46,163 bases of DNA from Candidatus Velthaea sp. (GCA_050012475.1 JBEKHC010000053.1:1-46163), one strand, 5' to 3'; positions 15,001 to 24,000 are shown, counted from the stretch's first letter. Program-made: the numbers.

Positions 15001-18000
15001 GCGACATGAGCTACACGTACGACGGTGGCGCCAGCGTTTGGGGTCCGTTCATGTCGAGTCTGGGACAAAGCTCATCGGGCGTTAGTAACTTGATGATCAA
15101 CAACTGCGGCATCAACATGCAAACGCACATGCACATCTTGACTCCGCCGTAAGGCGAACGCGGCCTCCAGCGCCGCATGGCGTCTTGCCTGTCGTTCCAC
15201 CAGGCAAGAATCCGTGCGGCGCTGCTGCGTTCCGCGGCAGATATCGCGCGCAGACCGGAACGTTCCGCGTTCCGGACTTCGCCGTTCAACCGGGTATCGG
15301 CAAAGCGCTCGTCTGCACCCACGCAAAATCGCTCCAATCGTCCGGGCGAAGTCGGGTCATTTGAGAACGTCAACAGAGGCCGAAAGGCCCCATGCATATG
15401 GGAGCGACTTCTGCCGAGTTCAGCGAAGTCTGTGTCCGAGCAGTCGCCGGGCAACGTCGTCGCCCAGAAACGAACAAGTCGCCATGAACGATCTGGCTTC
15501 AATTCCGTCATTCGTCCAACTGGCCGACATTTCTCCAACGACGCGGAGTGCGGATCACGGCGGCGTTGGCGCGATCGCGTTTCGGCGGCTGCTCACCGAC
15601 ACCGCTTTTGCCTCGGCGATCGATTTTGTCGACGTGAGCGTCATCCCGCCCGCGAGCACGATCGGCAAACACGAGCATCACAACTCAGAGGAGCTTTATT
15701 TTATTGCATCCGGCGCCCCGCTCGTCACCGTCAACGGCAACTCTCGCCGATTGACGCGCGGAGACGTAAGCGTGGTACGCTCCGGCGAATGGCACGAACT
15801 CGTCAACGACACCGCGGAGCCCGTCGAGATCTTCGTGGTACAGGTTCATCTATGAACGGTGCCGCTCGCAGCCTGGAAGAAAAGAGCTTTGAACGGCATC
15901 GGATTCTGTCGATGTCGGCGTCGAAAACCGTCGCCTACGAGATCGAGCACACCCGCGCACCGATCTTCGATCTCTGCGACAACACGCTTGCCGACGCCGT
16001 AGAAGGTCGACCGGTCTTCATCGTCATCGACGAACGATTGTGGGCAGCGCATGGATCGCAGGTCGAGAGCTATGCTCAGTCGAGGCTGCACTGCCTGGGC
16101 GTCATCCGTCTTCCCGGCAGCGAAGCGACCAAATCGCTCGACGCGGTTGCCGCGCTGTGTAATGCTGCGATCGAAAAACATTTGCCGCGTCACGGCGCGT
16201 TCATCGCCGTTGGCGGCGGAACGATCCTCGACATGGTCGGATTCGTGGCCTCGATCTATCGGCGCGGAATCGCGTACGTTCGCGTTCCAACGACGCTCAT
16301 CGGAATGATCGACGTCGGCGTCGGGATCAAGCAAGCGATCAACTTCAAGCACAAAAAGAATGTTCTCGGCTCGTTCTATCCGCCGCTCTGCACGATCAAT
16401 GACGTTCGATTCCTCTGGCAGTTACCGCGCCGCGAGCTGGCGTGCGGAATGGCTGAAGCACTCAAGATTTTCCTGTTGTGCGATGCGCCGGCGTTTGAGC
16501 TGCTCGAGGAACACGCGCTCGAACTCATGGAAAGCCGCCTTCGCTCCCCCGAACCCGTCGCCGAAACCTTCTTATTGCGGGCTCAGATCGCCATGATGGA
16601 GCAGCTATCCACGAACCTGTTCGAGCATGAATTACAGCGACTCGTCGATTTCGGGCATTCGTTCAGTCCGATCATCGAAACGATGAGCGACTACGCGGTC
16701 GCACATGGCGAAGCCGTTGCGCTCGACATGCTCCTCTCTACCGCGATCGCCGTCGGCCGCAAACTCTGCGATGCAAGCCTCATGTCGCGGCTGATCCGCC
16801 TGTATGGAAACATCGGGCTCCCGACGACCCATCCTCTCCTTTCGCCGCTCTTGATGGAACGCGCACTCGTCGAGACACGAGCCCATCGCGGCGGGGTTAC
16901 GAATCTGGTCGTACCTGCCGGTCTCGGCGCCGCACACTTTCTGCAAGACGTTTCCTACGACGAAATTGCGCTTGCGCTTCGATCGATCGCCGCCTGAAGA
17001 AATGCGCGCCCCGGTGACATGCGTCGTCGCGGACTTAGGCGGCACCTTCTTGCGCTGCGCGATCGTTTTCGCCGACGGATCGATCGGAACGATCGAACGC
17101 TTTCGGCTGGGCGGAGACGCCCTGTCGCGCACCAGCGACATTTGGACCGAGGTGATCGACGCAATTGCCGGCTACGTCGACCGGCACTACGCAAAGATCC
17201 CGCCGTCGGCGACGATCGCCTTCGCGTTTCCGGGACCGATCGCCGGCGGCAAGATCACCTCCGCGCCGACCGTACTCGGCGGCGAGACCGTAACGCCGGA
17301 CGTGCGTTCGCTGCTCGCCGCCCGCACCCGCCGTGAGGTAATCGTCGTCAACGACGTTTCGGCTGCGGCATGGTATTTCGGCGACCGCATTTCGGCCGAC
17401 CGGTTCGTCGTCGTAACGGTGAGCAGCGGAATCGGTGCAAAGATCTTCGATCGCCGGCATCCGCTCGGGGTGCTCGACGACGTTCCATGGTCCGGCGAGA
17501 TCGGCCATCTGGTGGTCGAGAACCATCCTGATGCGCCGATCTGCGACTGCGGCGGCCTCGGCCACCTCGGCGCGCTTTCCTCAGCGCGCGGCTTCGAGCG
17601 GCAAGCCCGCCTGGCGGCGGCAATCGATCCGGCGAGCTTTTCGCGAAGTGCGAACGTCACGCACTTCGGCGCCACGCCCGCCACGCTGAACAACGAAGAG
17701 CACCTCGTCCCCGCACTGCGCGCTGCCGACCCGTGGTCGCTGGCACTCCTGCGTTCGGCGATCCGGCCGCTGGCGCAGGTCCTGCGCATCTTGTGCGTCG
17801 GCAGCGGCTTGGACGCGATCGTGCTCATGGGCGGCTTCGTCGAGGCACTGGGAGAACCGTACGCGGCGCTCGTGCGAGATGCCGTCGGCATGCTTTCGGA
17901 TTGCGGGCCGGCGCGACCCGACATGCCCACCCCGATCTTCCTCGTAGGCGCCGGTGAGGAGCCGTCGCTCATCGGAGCCGCGGCTTACGCTCGCGCGTAC

Positions 18001-21000: not shown

Positions 21001-24000
21001 GAGAACGTCGCCCGGCGGCCCGACGAGCGCATGTATCTCGCAGCCCAGGTTCAGCAGCGTGCGGCAAACGGCAGTGCCGATGAAACCTCCCGCACCCGTG
21101 ACGGCGACCCGTTTGAGTTCAATCACGCGAACGGCTCGCAGCGACTTCCGAGAACACGTCTTCCATCCGGCGCGCCAAGTGTTCACGCGTGTAACTCGTC
21201 AAGTAGCGTTCACGAGCAGCATCGCCGAAGGCTCGCGCGACTTCCGGCTGATCCAGCAAGCGATTCAGTCCGCGCGCAACTGCTTGCGCATCGTCGACCG
21301 GTACGACGATTCCCGTTCGGTCGTTGAGGACCAGAGTCGGAATACCGGCGTGCGCCGACGCGACGAGCGGCTTGCCCAGCGACATGCCTTCGAGGATGGC
21401 GTTGGGCAAAGAATCTTGCATCGTCGGATGAGCATGAATGTCGACGGTTTGCCAGACATCGCCGATCTTGCCTTGATACGGCGCGATGATGACGCGATCC
21501 GCGATTCCAAGTTCGCGGGCACGCGTGCGCAGGACGTCGGCATAGCCGGTTCCCCGCCGCTCGAAGCCCACAATGAGAAAGGTGACGTCGGGATGACGCT
21601 CGAGCACCGCGGGGGCCGCTTCAAGCAGCAGATGCTGGCCTTTTCCGGGCGCCAGCGCAGCGATTTGTCCCACCACACGCGTCTGGTCGCGGGGCGCTAA
21701 GCCGAGCTTCGCGCGCACCTCGGCCTCCGAACATTCGGCAACCGGCGGCGGAGGTCCGTTGGGAATGACTCGAACGCGCGCGCGGTGGCTCGGTAGCATC
21801 CAAGAACGCAACACGCCGGCAACCGCGTCGGAGTCGGTCACAACGGCTCGAGAGGCCGCCAGCGTGGTCCGGTGCATCGCGTTCCACAGCCAACGCGGAT
21901 GCCATGTCTCGCTGACGTTGTAGGTCGTCAGCAAACTCGGCACGCCGGTGAGCACGCCGGCAATCGTCCCGGTGAGGTATCCCGCACCGTGATGACCGTC
22001 GATCACATCGATGCGTTCGCGCCGGACGTAACGCGCAATGCGCGCAACGGTTCCCGCCAGCAAACCGACCCGCAACACGTGCCGGCGCGGATCGTTCAGT
22101 GCCAATCCGCGGGTCACTCGCGGGACGCTCAGGTCGACCACGGAAACGCCGGCGCGCTCGAACTCGCCACGCAGGTTCCCGTAGATGCGATCGACGTTGG
22201 CATCGTTGGGGCGGATCGTGGCAACCCGGAAGTCGAACCGTTCGCGGTCGATCGCTTGCACCAACTGCAAGACCCGATTCTCATCGCCGCCAAAGGAGAA
22301 GCCGTCGAGAACCGAGAGAACCCTCAGCTTACGGCTCAAGACGCGAACCGGGTGCGGTTGGATCGGATGAGATGTTCCGCTTGTTCGAGCGTCCGGGCAT
22401 CGTTGACGTCGATCCAAAGCTCATCGTGCTCGTACGCCGCAATCGGCAATCCCGCTGCGAGGACCGCAGCGAAGAGATCGGCCGCGCCGAATGGCCGATT
22501 TGGCGGCACGAACGCAGCCGCCTCGGGGCTAACGACGCAGGTGCCGCTCGAGATGCGCACGCGGCGAACCGGTTTTTCGCGGTACGCCCGCACGAAGCCC
22601 GCTTCGATCTCCAGTTCGCCAAATGGATTCTGCAGCGGCCAAAGGTGCGTAGCAATCGTTAACGCGGCCGCCGCTTGACGATGCCTCGTCAGCAGTTCCG
22701 TTGCGGAAATCGATGTCAAGTTATCGACGTAGATCACGAGGGCATCGCTTTCGCCGTCGTTGAGCGCACCGACGACGCCGATGTTCCCTAACGGTTCGTG
22801 CTCGACAAATGTCTGGAGCCGCGCGTCAAGCCGGCTTGCGAGCGCGGCGCCGCGTTCGTGAAGATACGCTTCGATCTCCGGCTCGCAATTCGAGTGGACG
22901 ACGACCACATCGGTGACCCCCACGGCAAACAGCGCAAGTAGGTTGTGTTCGATCAGCGGGAGGCCGGCAACTTCCACGAGCGCCTTGTGTGCCGGGCCGT
23001 GTGTCGCCCGCATCCGCTCCGAGCGCCCTCCCGCCATGATGACACCGCGAACGCGGCGGTTCGCCGGCACTACTGCCTGGTTTGCGGCGGATTGGCTCGA
23101 CACAAGAAAAGCGTAGCGACGAGCGGCCGCATCAGGTAGGGGCTTTCGTTATCGTGTTTTGCGACGAAGCTACCCACGAGCAAATGACGGCCGGTCGTCG
23201 GGGGAGCTCACGACGCCGTGGGCGCGGACCCAGCGGCGGATGTGCCGCCGTTCGGCGCTAAAAGGCCGAGCACTTTCGGCGCGTCGACGAGCAACACGGG
23301 CTTGAGCGAATGTCGTTCGCAGAAATCGATGAGCGCAAAGCTCAGGTCGGTGTCATCACAAACGATGAGACCCGACGCCGAAAGCCTTGACAAAGCCGTT
23401 TCAAGTTCGAAATCCATCCAACGATAGGTGTGGTCCGAGTCGTGGATCATCAAGTCGATCGCCGGCATCGCGTCCAAATAACTGACGAAGTCTTTTTTCG
23501 GCGCCGATCGCGAGAGAAGCCGCAAATCCCAGCGCGCCCGCTCGGCGGGTTCGATGAGCGTTCCGACGTTGGTTGAAACGTCGATGCTATGGAGCGTGCC
23601 GCCACTTGAATTCCGGCTCAGCGCCTGCAGGATGAAAAACGACGAATGGCCGTTCGCTACGCCCGTTTCGAGGACCGTTTTCGGAGACATCGTTCGGACA
23701 AGCGCGTAAAGAACGAACGCGGAGCCTGAGCCGAACGCCCAAGGCCGGGGATAATCGAGACGCCGATCGGCGTATCGGCGGGATAACTCGGCATTGTGCT
23801 CGTCGTACTCCTGCCGCAGCAGCGCGATCTCGGCTTCGTCCACGCCGAACTGACCCCGGAGCAGTTGCTCGGGGTTGTCGTAAACGGTTTGCGCGGCAGC
23901 GCACAGTGTTTGAAACGACGGCATGTCGGTCTTGCGAAATCCGCGGCTGAGCGTCTTCATGGCGATCTTACAGAGGACACGTTCAAACGTGTCGCGCACG

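Follow-up and report, generated by a model that had tools for sequence, protein, structure and literature searches.

A co-inherited C7-cyclitol cassette with a GH4-fold enzyme in Candidatus Velthaea, and its predicted carbasugar route

Genes of the cassette

The window analysed here, a stretch of 46,163 nucleotides from Candidatus Velthaea sp. (GCA_050012475.1 JBEKHC010000053.1:1-46163), contains eight intact genes in two convergent operons. Reading of the ORFs and the Pfam domains agreed with the families and the convergent halves of the initial annotation. The start of the nucleotidyltransferase had been placed at 23013; a glycine-rich motif lies upstream of it and the start was corrected to 23070 (or 23103). 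The enzymes are small and without transmembrane segments. Adjacent genes overlap by 4–8 bases or are separated by 4 bases, and the 3' ends of the GH4-like gene and epi2 overlap by 61 bases (19157–19217). The features are as follows:

6036..12697, + strand: WbaP-type priming transferase, two flippase-like genes, wzy/ligase-like gene and GT2 (context)
15484..15855, + strand: cupin, 123 aa, optional member (PF07883, Cupin_2)
15852..16997, + strand: predicted EEVS-type sedoheptulose 7-phosphate cyclase, 381 aa (DHQ_synthase/DHQS_C; best PDB match 4P53, ValA)
17002..18015, + strand: ROK kinase, probably of the cyclitol 7-kinase type, 337 aa (PF00480)
18012..19217, + strand: GH4-fold enzyme, 401 aa, with a CELP motif and a cofactor site of the NADP type (PF02056/PF11975, Glyco_hydro_4/4C)
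19157..20197, - strand: epi2, Rmd-like extended SDR, predicted NADPH-type ketoreductase, 346 aa (Epimerase family; PDB matches)
20194..21126, - strand: epi1, dehydratase-type extended SDR, 310 aa (Epimerase family; S-S-A-E-V motif)
21119..22339, - strand: GT4 glycosyltransferase of its own clade, 406 aa (PF00534)
22336..23070, - strand: short sugar-1-phosphate-type nucleotidyltransferase, 244 aa, start corrected (PF00483, NTP_transferase)
36230..39395, + strand: wza and wzc (context)

Among PDB entries the cyclase scored highest against 4P53 (ValA), with 245 bits versus 170 for 5TPR, 143 for the best DHQS and 113 for DOIS. In alignments it was identical to ValA at the Glu/His/His metal ligands and at two fingerprint sites, two of a 14-residue set, where we take Leu and Asp to mark EEVS and Glu and Ala to mark DDGS. 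Fingerprint sites that tell such cyclases apart are described in PMC4426668. The best match and the ValA-like fingerprint point to the EEVS-type activity initially proposed. An AroB identity was ruled out by the score on the aroB model TIGR01357 (221 bits, cut-off 305), by the motif VDFGH in place of the LN[FL]GH of AroB, and by the separate aroB, already noted, which lies on contig C18 and reads LNFGH.

The cyclase shares 38% identity with that of an acarbose-like Streptomyces plasmid cluster. The same cluster holds the closer (36%) of the two ROK genes from plasmid cyclitol clusters that resemble the kinase, the other being 30% identical; all of its best plasmid matches lie in cyclitol clusters. 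A ROK kinase of the window's type accompanies all 33 EEVS-type cyclases in the listed loci, and no paralogue was found in the window's genome. Relatives of the cupin (35–39% identity) adjoin cyclases on Streptomyces and Bacillus plasmids, and the protein may be a C2 epimerase or a keto-isomerase.

The AlphaFold model of the GH4-like protein (pLDDT 95) has the fold, the Cys/His metal site and the Tyr base of the GH4 superfamily, with TM of 0.84–0.85 to BglT and 0.77–0.85 over BglT (1UP4/1UP6/1UP7) and GlvA (1U8X). Cys166 and His196 (metal), Tyr221 (base), both phosphate-binding arginines and Glu103 are retained. In BglT we take Tyr241 to be the base, the Asp after strand 2 to select NAD, and the Asn-Pro and Cys-Asn motifs to be typical. 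The metal ligands of BglT are Cys162 and His192 (PMC10755693). At about 22% identity to BglT and in a biosynthetic neighbourhood, the clade has Gly/Ala-Arg in place of Asp36-Ile37 (NADP type; Arg in 53 of 56), Glu for Asn163 (56 of 56, a Cys-Glu motif), Ser/Ala for Asn140, Asp for Gln102 and Ser for Tyr12. A 6-phospho-beta-glucosidase of the BglT type was ruled out by the replacement of the NAD-selecting Asp, Asn-Pro and Cys-Asn with Gly/Ala-Arg, Ser/Ala-Pro and Cys-Glu. Database labels of the homologues are mostly those of glucosidases, such as '6-phospho-beta-glucosidase'.

The two SDRs belong to the Epimerase family, as annotated, but the label of NDP-sugar epimerases is probably too weak, given their dehydratase-type and Rmd-type reductase signatures. 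In epi1, the Glu of the S-S-A-E-V motif is present in 37 of 41 sequences and the Tyr and Lys in all 41; the best NCBIfam match, the LegB 4,6-dehydratase, stays below its cut-off (195 bits against 475), and the PDB matches mix epimerases with dehydratases. A true Gmd was excluded by 70 bits on the gmd model TIGR01472 (cut-off 415), and epi1 may work like a dehydratase without being Gmd. The best PDB matches of epi2, 2PK3 and 6X3B, are Rmd (116 and 103 bits); G34 and R35 are found in 47 of 47, and the motifs fit an NADPH-type Arg without the dehydratase Glu. A canonical gmd-rmd pair lies elsewhere in the genome, and epi2 is only 35% identical to that rmd. By these motifs the two SDRs look like a Gmd/Rmd pair. 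The nucleotidyltransferase is closest to MurU- and GMPP-like structures; its EKP and two Asp sites are invariant (47 of 47). Orthologues of the GT4 enzyme were detected across phyla at 35–64% identity; its PDB matches are weak (at most 56 bits) and include inositol-acceptor mannosyltransferases.

Recurrence and genomic setting

Searches with the GH4-like protein reached at least 62 GTDB loci. Among the matches listed, the 62 loci hold the cyclase in 49, the NTP transferase in 48, the SDRs in 48–49 and the GT4 in 47, which bears out recurrence as a unit; the window-type kinase is found in 34 and the cupin in 32. All eight genes occur together in only 19 of these loci, whereas a seven-gene core is present in 27 of the 39 listed loci of at least 20 kb. 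The conserved unit is seven genes, with the cupin optional. The kinase had been counted in 24 of 44 loci; with a second ROK clade included, some kinase is present in 52 of the 62. The family prevalence of 1 in 60 gave way to 17 of 206 other family genomes. By record label the core spans at least seven phyla, although two of the records given as proteobacterial probably bear a wrong label. A GH4-like protein that carries the name of the cultured species Terriglobus saanensis has an identical copy in a genome with all eight genes.

With epi1 as an independent anchor, a survey of 301 genomes from the window's phylum gave 18 orthologues, each of them next to the GH4-like gene. Three cassette genomes lack an epi1 orthologue, and the one examined (locus L023) keeps epi2. 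The + half occurs without SDRs in loci L033, L037 and L042. With the query used, no SDR was found elsewhere in genomes G024 and G027, and G030 gave only 35–37% matches. Flanking families were obtained by comparing 207 of about 390 representatives with Pfam. A DegT gene is present in 30 and a Gfo/Idh/MocA gene in 24 of the 62 listed loci, whose recurring neighbours include no conserved exporter or phosphatase (HAD included) and no PTS or sugar-uptake family.

The ambiguous cyclases of distant loci, which had been raised as a possible refutation, do not count against the finding; they mark a second subtype, in which the cyclase is AroB-like and the kinase comes from another clade. These cyclases reach or come near the aroB cut-off, and a separate, higher-scoring aroB was present in all five genomes checked. 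In 16 listed loci they are probably EVS (2-epi-valiolone synthase), whereas the window's cyclase is of the EEVS type; EVS is named as an enzyme in PMC12904256. Cyclase type and kinase clade change in step with a TIM-barrel gene and the GH4 clade, while the downstream genes remain orthologous, as expected if both C5 epimers converge after dehydration. In nine distant listed loci epi2 is fused to the cyclase.

As first reported, the cassette lies here inside a polysaccharide locus, with WbaP-type, wzx, wzy, wza and wzc genes on its flanks. All three other genomes of the genus have the wzx...wza-wzc locus (wza and wzc at 79–86% identity) without the cassette, and one of them (G007) carries the cassette at another site. 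The region from the priming transferase to the GT2 gene (6036..12697) is likewise retained in the genus without the cassette. The link had been seen in 3 of 44 loci; it is wider beyond 10 kb. Of 39 genomes, 14 have polysaccharide markers within 50 kb, where 5.9 would be expected if related genomes are counted as independent. This is a two- to threefold enrichment, and a Wzx flippase adjoins the cassette in G743. The other 25 genomes have no marker within 50 kb. These counts and the genus mates rule out an obligate module of a Wzy-dependent locus, and that the cassette feeds the polysaccharide is not established. The link is enriched but optional.

Candidate pathway and competing explanations

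The C7-cyclitol pathway initially proposed is supported as conserved and co-inherited; its cyclase is of the EEVS type, its ROK kinase probably of the cyclitol type, and its GH4 enzyme divergent. Most likely, the cassette converts a common C7 sugar phosphate into a nucleotide-activated mimic of a sugar that has a carbon ring. We tentatively prefer one reaction line leading to a nucleotide-activated C7 carbasugar donor for a cell-envelope glycan.

C7 would be phosphorylated by the ROK kinase, for which homology gives good support, and C2 might be epimerised by the cupin where present. The candidate role of the GH4-fold enzyme is that of a cyclitol-7-phosphate dehydratase (C5–C6) and/or C1 ketone reductase, which would use Mn2+ and NADPH and yield a valienol- or valiolol-type 7-phosphate, in place of AcbL and AcbN, which do this work in acarbose synthesis. 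EEV 7-phosphate, flipped about the C2–C5 axis, would superpose on the GH4 intermediate 3-keto-glucose 6-phosphate, and C1 would thus lie at the nicotinamide. A housekeeping mutase would move the phosphate from C7 to C1, which is the weak link of the proposal, and the nucleotidyltransferase would form an NDP (probably GDP) carbasugar. C4, and perhaps C7, may be edited by epi1 and epi2 by Gmd/Rmd logic, and the GT4 enzyme would then transfer the product, a lipid-linked repeat unit being the likeliest acceptor. Amino, acyl or methyl variants could arise where the optional DegT, Gfo/Idh/MocA, acyl- and methyltransferase genes are present.

This line is favoured by the recurrence of the core, the constant position of epi1 beside the GH4-like gene, the epi2-cyclase fusions, the joint variation of cyclase, kinase, TIM-barrel gene and GH4 clade, the retained and replaced residues of the GH4-like protein, the separate canonical gmd-rmd pair together with the low gmd score of epi1, the lack of a conserved exporter or phosphatase in the listed loci, the enrichment of polysaccharide markers and the Wzx in G743. 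Against it stand the three genomes without epi1, the genomes without a marker and the cassette-free locus of the genus mates. Moreover, its SDR and GT4 steps conflict, since a 4,6-dehydratase requires a C5 hydrogen and the pseudo-glycosyltransferases known to us use an allylic donor. No C1 kinase, phosphatase or mutase occurs in the core. GDP-valienol has a precedent in acarbose biosynthesis, where the C7 to C1 step takes AcbU together with AcbJ; phosphoglucomutases, its authors suggest, may not accept pseudosugars (PMC9200736). The fullest form, a GDP-activated carba-hexose (mannose/rhamnose mimic) built into surface polysaccharide by a GT4 pseudo-glycosyltransferase, its ring made by a GH4 fold turned NADPH-dependent dehydratase-reductase, is unlikely to hold in all its parts.

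The main rival, doubtful but the most serious, is a deoxysugar on a cyclitol: the + operon would make a cyclitol 7-phosphate and the - operon an ordinary NDP-6-deoxyhexose, joined by the GT4 enzyme into a pseudo-disaccharide (phosphate) serving as solute, head group or glycan cap. No step would be missing, the SDR signatures match Gmd/Rmd chemistry directly, and two operons would correspond to two branches, in keeping with the loci whose left half lacks SDRs; a housekeeping Gmd could also cover the loss of epi1. However, the nucleotidyltransferase, epi1 and epi2 lie far from the canonical enzymes ManC, Gmd and Rmd, every epi1 orthologue in the 301 phylum genomes accompanies cyclitol genes, and an SDR is fused to the cyclase; the inositol-acceptor mannosyltransferases among the GT4 matches fit this rival but score too weakly for an acceptor assignment.

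It is distinctly unlikely that the same early steps lead to a small free (amino)cyclitol or pseudo-oligosaccharide of the kind known from acarbose, validamycin and kirkamide, and that the polysaccharide setting reflects no more than a variable part of the chromosome. The characterised C7-cyclitol pathways in the sections of the review PMC12904256 considered here do end in small molecules. The DegT and Gfo/Idh/MocA genes would suit such a product, and most cassettes, including that of G007, are not close to polysaccharide genes; but both plasmid cyclitol clusters examined carry the exporter and HAD phosphatase that are not conserved here, and the enrichment near polysaccharide markers speaks against it.

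In a very improbable alternative, the GH4-like enzyme is a redox-neutral lyase or hydrolase that acts on a carbasugar 7-phosphate ether at its C1-O bond. By cleaving (or forming) this bond, which is beyond ordinary glycosidases, it would recycle or mature the product and would not build the ring. The whole elimination apparatus is retained, and Glu167 aligns with what we take to be the acid of alpha-specific GH4 enzymes; yet the NADP-type site fits a stoichiometric reductase, the gene lies directly behind cyclase and kinase even in loci without the transferase half, and among the genes shared by all loci there is no second candidate for the dehydratase. The cassette might also be a mixed set of everyday sugar genes, with an additional aroB, a glucokinase and a 6-phospho-glucosidase of catabolism, as the database labels and the aroB scores of distant cyclases suggest; this is hardly credible beside the EEVS fingerprint, the separate aroB in this and five of five distant genomes, the co-inheritance and the lack of PTS or uptake families among recurring neighbours.

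If the activated-carbasugar route is real, it would bring C7-cyclitol chemistry to Vulcanimicrobiota, Acidobacteriota, Myxococcota and Gemmatimonadota, soil phyla that are abundant but little studied. It might also take this chemistry to glycans of the cell surface, where ether-linked carba-hexose units would not be cut in the usual way by glycosidases or phage depolymerases. The GH4 family would gain a biosynthetic function, and perhaps a GT4 pseudo-glycosyltransferase would be added.

Comparison with known systems

The nearest systems are the GDP-valienol branch of acarbose (AcbC, AcbM, AcbO, AcbL, AcbN, AcbU, AcbJ, AcbR, AcbS; PMC9200736) and validamycin (ValA, ValC). In common with the cassette, as its genes are predicted, they combine an EEVS cyclase with a ROK 7-kinase and a nucleotidyltransferase and finish with a step of the glycosyltransferase kind. 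The cassette differs in its GH4-fold enzyme, optional cupin and Gmd/Rmd-like SDR pair in the middle, and in its GT4 transferase, lack of an exporter and mostly uncultured Gram-negative soil hosts; no AcbU/AcbJ equivalent recurs in the 62 listed loci. Its nucleotidyltransferase is of the short MurU/GMPP type, whereas AcbR and ValB are GlgC-like. A cluster of the acarbose/validamycin type was ruled out by the absence of C1 kinase and phosphatase, GT5/GT20 pseudo-glycosyltransferase and exporter from the recurring families of these loci.

No description of the cassette was found in the literature, the key cyclitol papers lying outside that search. The claim of an undescribed pathway is less certain in view of the kirkamide K-cluster, which reportedly also has a cupin, a Gfo/Idh/MocA protein and a 6-phospho-beta-glucosidase-like gene, and is said to lack a nucleotidyltransferase, SDR pair and GT4; the three additional genes would match the left half of the cassette plus the optional DegT/Gfo module. 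A search of a plasmid collection gave no record of this cluster. Known from Burkholderia leaf symbionts, the K-cluster has eight genes including EEVS, ROK, aminotransferase and HAD hydrolase (bioRxiv 10.1101/2022.09.27.509721). The window's cassette has no HAD hydrolase or aminotransferase, and the other listed loci have DegT in 30 of 62 and no recurring HAD. None of the homologues listed, most without an organism name, is named Burkholderia or Caballeronia.

Finally, the pathways to GDP-D-rhamnose (ManC, Gmd, Rmd, GT4) and GDP-6-deoxy-heptose are comparable in operon content. A short sugar-1-phosphate nucleotidyltransferase, a Glu-bearing dehydratase-type SDR, an Rmd-like reductase and a GT4 in one operon are common to these pathways and the cassette. 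In the cassette, by contrast, every one of these enzymes falls in a separate clade linked to a sugar-phosphate cyclase.

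Gene layout of the cassette

All eight genes described in the initial annotation were found in the window, with the left half on the + strand and the remaining four genes forming an operon on the - strand:

15484-15855, + strand, cupin
15852-16997, + strand, sugar-phosphate cyclase
17002-18015, + strand, ROK kinase
18012-19217, + strand, GH4-like enzyme
23070-22336, - strand, nucleotidyltransferase
22339-21119, - strand, GT4 glycosyltransferase
21126-20194, - strand, SDR protein epi1
20197-19157, - strand, SDR protein epi2

Within each half, the spacing consists of 4-8 base overlaps or 4-base gaps, and the two halves are convergent with a 61-base overlap between them. 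The cassette had been drawn as ending at 23013, which cuts off the glycine-rich motif of the transferase; the gene starts at 23070 or upstream of it. The separate aroB previously reported was present in the window's genome, where the cupin, kinase, GH4-like protein and transferase had no paralogues. A recent mobile insertion of the cassette was rejected, as no flanking repeats were detected and GC3 (0.70-0.81) resembles that of the neighbours. The promoter and terminator scan gave no signal exceeding shuffles. In one metatranscriptome run, 6% of words were present, with three contigs of 157-233 bases (98-100% match, depth 2-6); these were not counted as evidence of expression because DNA carry-over is possible.

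A Methyltransf_24 gene (23208-24071) adjoins the cassette and is common only to the metagenome locus L001; it was present in 0/62 of the GTDB loci listed, and a different methyltransferase family in 24/62. Three paralogous, probably secreted proteins (13380-15152, 24403-25866 and 25832-28138), two of them with malectin domains, flank the cassette, and their relatives recur in polysaccharide loci of the genus. Intergenic repeats were also observed, as an array of four copies at 30568-31234 (spacing 147-184 bases) and as two copies of ~87 bases each at 28599-28773.

Recurrence and association with polysaccharide loci

An alignment of 56 GH4-like sequences, used as the query, retrieved at least 62 GTDB loci. 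In the 62 loci listed, tblastn detected the cyclase in 49, the transferase in 48, the SDRs in 48-49, the GT4 in 47, the window's clade A-type kinase in 34 and the cupin in 32. Clustering of all ORFs showed that distant loci have a second clade of ROK kinases and another of cupins, and some kinase is present in 52/62 of the loci listed when the second ROK clade is counted. The proposed recurrence as a unit holds for a seven-gene core lacking the cupin, found in 27/39 loci of at least 20 kb among the matches listed, but the full set of eight occurred together in only 19/62 of those listed. Of the named sequences among the matches listed, the one nearest to the GH4-like protein is labelled Candidatus Velthaea, Vulcanimicrobiota.

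Because these loci had been picked via the GH4-like gene, three separate anchors were run on 301 genomes of the window's phylum; some genomes are shared between both recurrence sets, and related genomes do not count as independent. With the GH4 profile, 28 genomes gave a match, 21 at 328 bits or more and 7 at 221-241 bits. There were 29 epi1 matches: every one of the 18 with at least 43% identity had a GH4-like gene no more than about 5 kb away, which held for none of the 11 at 31-36%. Cyclase matches were obtained in 24 genomes, 20 of them adjoining a GH4-like gene. No epi1 orthologue was found in three phylum genomes having the GH4-like gene. The cassette was present in 17/206 other genomes of the window's family and was rare in a sampled acidobacterial family (2/401, centre included).

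Several loci showed peculiarities. L041, labelled 'Janthinobacterium', belongs to the same GTDB genus as a genome encoding a Terriglobus-named protein, and L031, labelled 'proteobacterium', groups with Vulcanimicrobiota; both labels look wrong. The left half alone, beside a divergent phosphoglycosyl-transferase-like gene, was seen in L037:5700-11149 and L042:6558-12700. In the ORF at L043:2785-5019, a nucleotidyltransferase domain is joined to NUDIX and radical SAM/SPASM domains, and in loci other than L043 NUDIX comes after Gfo/Idh/MocA.

The genus has a conserved WbaP-wzx...wza-wzc locus whose middle part varies. As previously annotated, the cassette lies inside this locus: it occupies the variable middle in the window, and likewise in L001. 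The variable middle carries no cassette in the genus mates G006 and G007, and in G007 the cassette is on a different contig. In a third, G008, parts of the polysaccharide locus lie on two separate contigs, and the GH4-like search gave no match. Proximity was then counted in 39 other genomes, one of 40 being left out because its GH4 search gave nothing at the cut-off. In 12/39 genomes (4.2 expected), a wza or priming transferase lay within 50 kb of the cassette. With flippases added, one of which was taken from a separate analysis, the counts were 14/39 within 50 kb (5.9 expected), 10/39 within 25 kb (3.4 expected) and 6/39 within 12 kb (1.8 expected); no marker was found within 50 kb in 25/39, several of which have the cassette on a short contig. 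Flippase, GT4 and WbaP genes are interleaved with the cassette in L013, the divergent arm of the cluster in genome G743 consists of a Wzx flippase, a NUDIX and an acyltransferase-like gene, and WbaP lies about 18 kb off in 2/5 further phylum genomes. The polysaccharide link is real yet optional. A SIS_2 gene (GmhA-like sedoheptulose 7-phosphate isomerase) was also noted between cassette and flippase at L013:12360-12923.

The cyclase, the kinase and two subtypes

The best solved relative of the cyclase is ValA (245 bits); DDGS reached 170 and the best-scoring DHQS 143. In the alignment the cyclase equals ValA at three metal ligands and at two fingerprint sites. Such sites for cyclase types are described in PMC4426668. 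A second aroB was rejected, given the best match to ValA and not DHQS, the genome's separate aroB, and a better-scoring aroB elsewhere in 5/5 subtype-B genomes checked. A DDGS/mycosporine reading was rejected on the cyclase score and the fingerprint, and no ATP-grasp gene recurs. The best plasmid matches of the kinase lie in Streptomyces and Bacillus cyclitol clusters, each also encoding a cupin and a cyclase.

Two subtypes were distinguished among the matches listed. The EEVS-type motif occurred in 33 loci, with kinase clade A in 33/33 and the TIM-barrel gene in 0/33; an AroB-like cyclase motif occurred in 16 loci (subtype B), with kinase clade B in 13/16 and an AP_endonuc_2 TIM barrel in 11/16. 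The GH4-like tree, obtained by a quick search, divides likewise (42 versus 14 rows, SH-aLRT 100 each). We infer that the AroB-like cyclases are of the 2-epi-valiolone synthase (EVS) type. According to PMC12904256, C5 is the sole difference between EEVS and EVS products; since both subtypes have a common downstream pathway, this points to an early step at which the C5 centre is lost or made alike.

In 9 distant loci among the matches listed, a fusion places the cyclase after epi2. An N-terminal extension of 200-320 aa was found on 10 cyclase ORFs (L013, L023, L029, L032, L037, L038, L039, L040, L042 and L046), with probably another at L082:16987-18792. In an hhalign comparison (85%) it matched the ROK kinase, and it resembles a degenerate copy of that kinase; an intact kinase gene lies alongside.

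The GH4-like enzyme, the proposed pathway and its precedents

The predicted model of the GH4-like enzyme (pLDDT 95) overlays BglT with TM 0.84-0.85. Arg87, Glu103, Cys162, His192, Tyr241 and Arg261 of BglT are kept as Arg90, Glu106, Cys166, His196, Tyr221 and Arg241, each in 55-56/56 sequences of the family; of these, the two arginines bind phosphate and Tyr241 is the base. Cys162 and His192 are Mn ligands in BglT, according to PMC10755693. By contrast, Asp36-Ile37 is replaced by Gly/Ala-Arg (Arg in 53/56), the usual NADP signature, Asn163 by Glu (56/56), Asn140 by Ser/Ala and Gln102 by Asp. An ESM Atlas search retrieved ordinary GH4 clusters only, and a Nonomuraea GH4 match in the plasmid collection was unannotated and had none of the cassette genes around it. 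Of 10 distant Cys-Glu GH4 proteins, 2 received an organism name through a cluster look-up. Proteins P0191-P0259 form a wider GH4-fold set with a Gly-Arg cofactor site and Cys-Glu or Cys-Asp motifs.

In the acarbose route, as set out in PMC9200736, the EEVS product (EEV) is converted to EEV 7-P (AcbM), 5-epi-valiolone 7-P (AcbO), valienone 7-P (AcbL), valienol 7-P (AcbN) and the 1-phosphate (AcbU, AcbJ), followed by AcbR and AcbS. The cassette would map onto this line with the cupin in place of AcbO and the GH4-like enzyme in place of AcbL and/or AcbN. Stereochemistry, argued rather than computed, would support the latter assignment. EEV is inverted relative to glucose at C2 and C5; flipped about the C2-C5 axis, its 7-phosphate would offer a gluco-like C2 hydroxyl, a position-3 ketone and a correctly placed phosphate arm, thus resembling the 3-keto intermediate of GH4 catalysis, and hydride transfer from NADPH would turn the C1 ketone into the alpha alcohol.

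The transferase is short and MurU/GMPP-like, and this likeness with the EKP motif, invariant in 47/47, indicates that its substrate should be a 1-phosphate; the same motif disfavours a CDP-polyol style activation of the C7-phosphate. A single line from cyclitol to envelope glycan, through an NDP-carbasugar donor, is the best reading, held tentatively at somewhat under an even chance. The shift of phosphate to C1 is its gap: no recurring C1 kinase, phosphatase or mutase was found in the 62 loci listed (scan of 207 out of roughly 390 representatives of the flanking genes). Three phosphomutases are encoded in the window's genome, and the acarbose authors suggest that phosphoglucomutases may not accept pseudosugars (PMC9200736). 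Two candidates for the missing step were rejected, a thymidylate-kinase-like gene, present in only 7 loci among the matches listed, and the cyclase extension, which is ROK-kinase-like, degenerate-looking and absent from the window.

This gap does not arise in the main rival, a somewhat less likely reading, in which the - strand operon would supply an ordinary 6-deoxyhexose for the GT4 to attach to the cyclitol. The closest relatives of epi2 are two Rmd structures, with an NADPH-type Arg in 47/47; epi1 has a dehydratase-type Glu in 37/41, scored 70 on the gmd model against a cut-off of 415, and had UDP-glucose 4-epimerase as top PDB match. A canonical gmd-rmd pair lies elsewhere in the window's genome. 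An apparent intein was seen in canonical gmd (G000:C84:15789-17723, outside the window, and G008:C23:2264-4252), where some 330 aa bearing LAGLIDADG-like motifs are inserted in frame, with His-Asn at their end ahead of a Ser; gmd is uninterrupted in G006 and G007. A free small molecule as the end of the pathway appears improbable. Returning to the single line, it is possible, but less likely than not, that the carbasugar itself is built into a surface glycan.

No description of the cassette was found in the literature within reach, which left out subscription papers on cyclase clusters and the 2016 kirkamide paper. A conserved C7-cyclitol pathway with a repurposed GH4 enzyme is real and apparently undescribed. 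For the left half there may be a published precedent with no reaction assigned, because the kirkamide cluster reportedly combines an EEVS and a ROK with genes for a cupin and a glucosidase-like protein.
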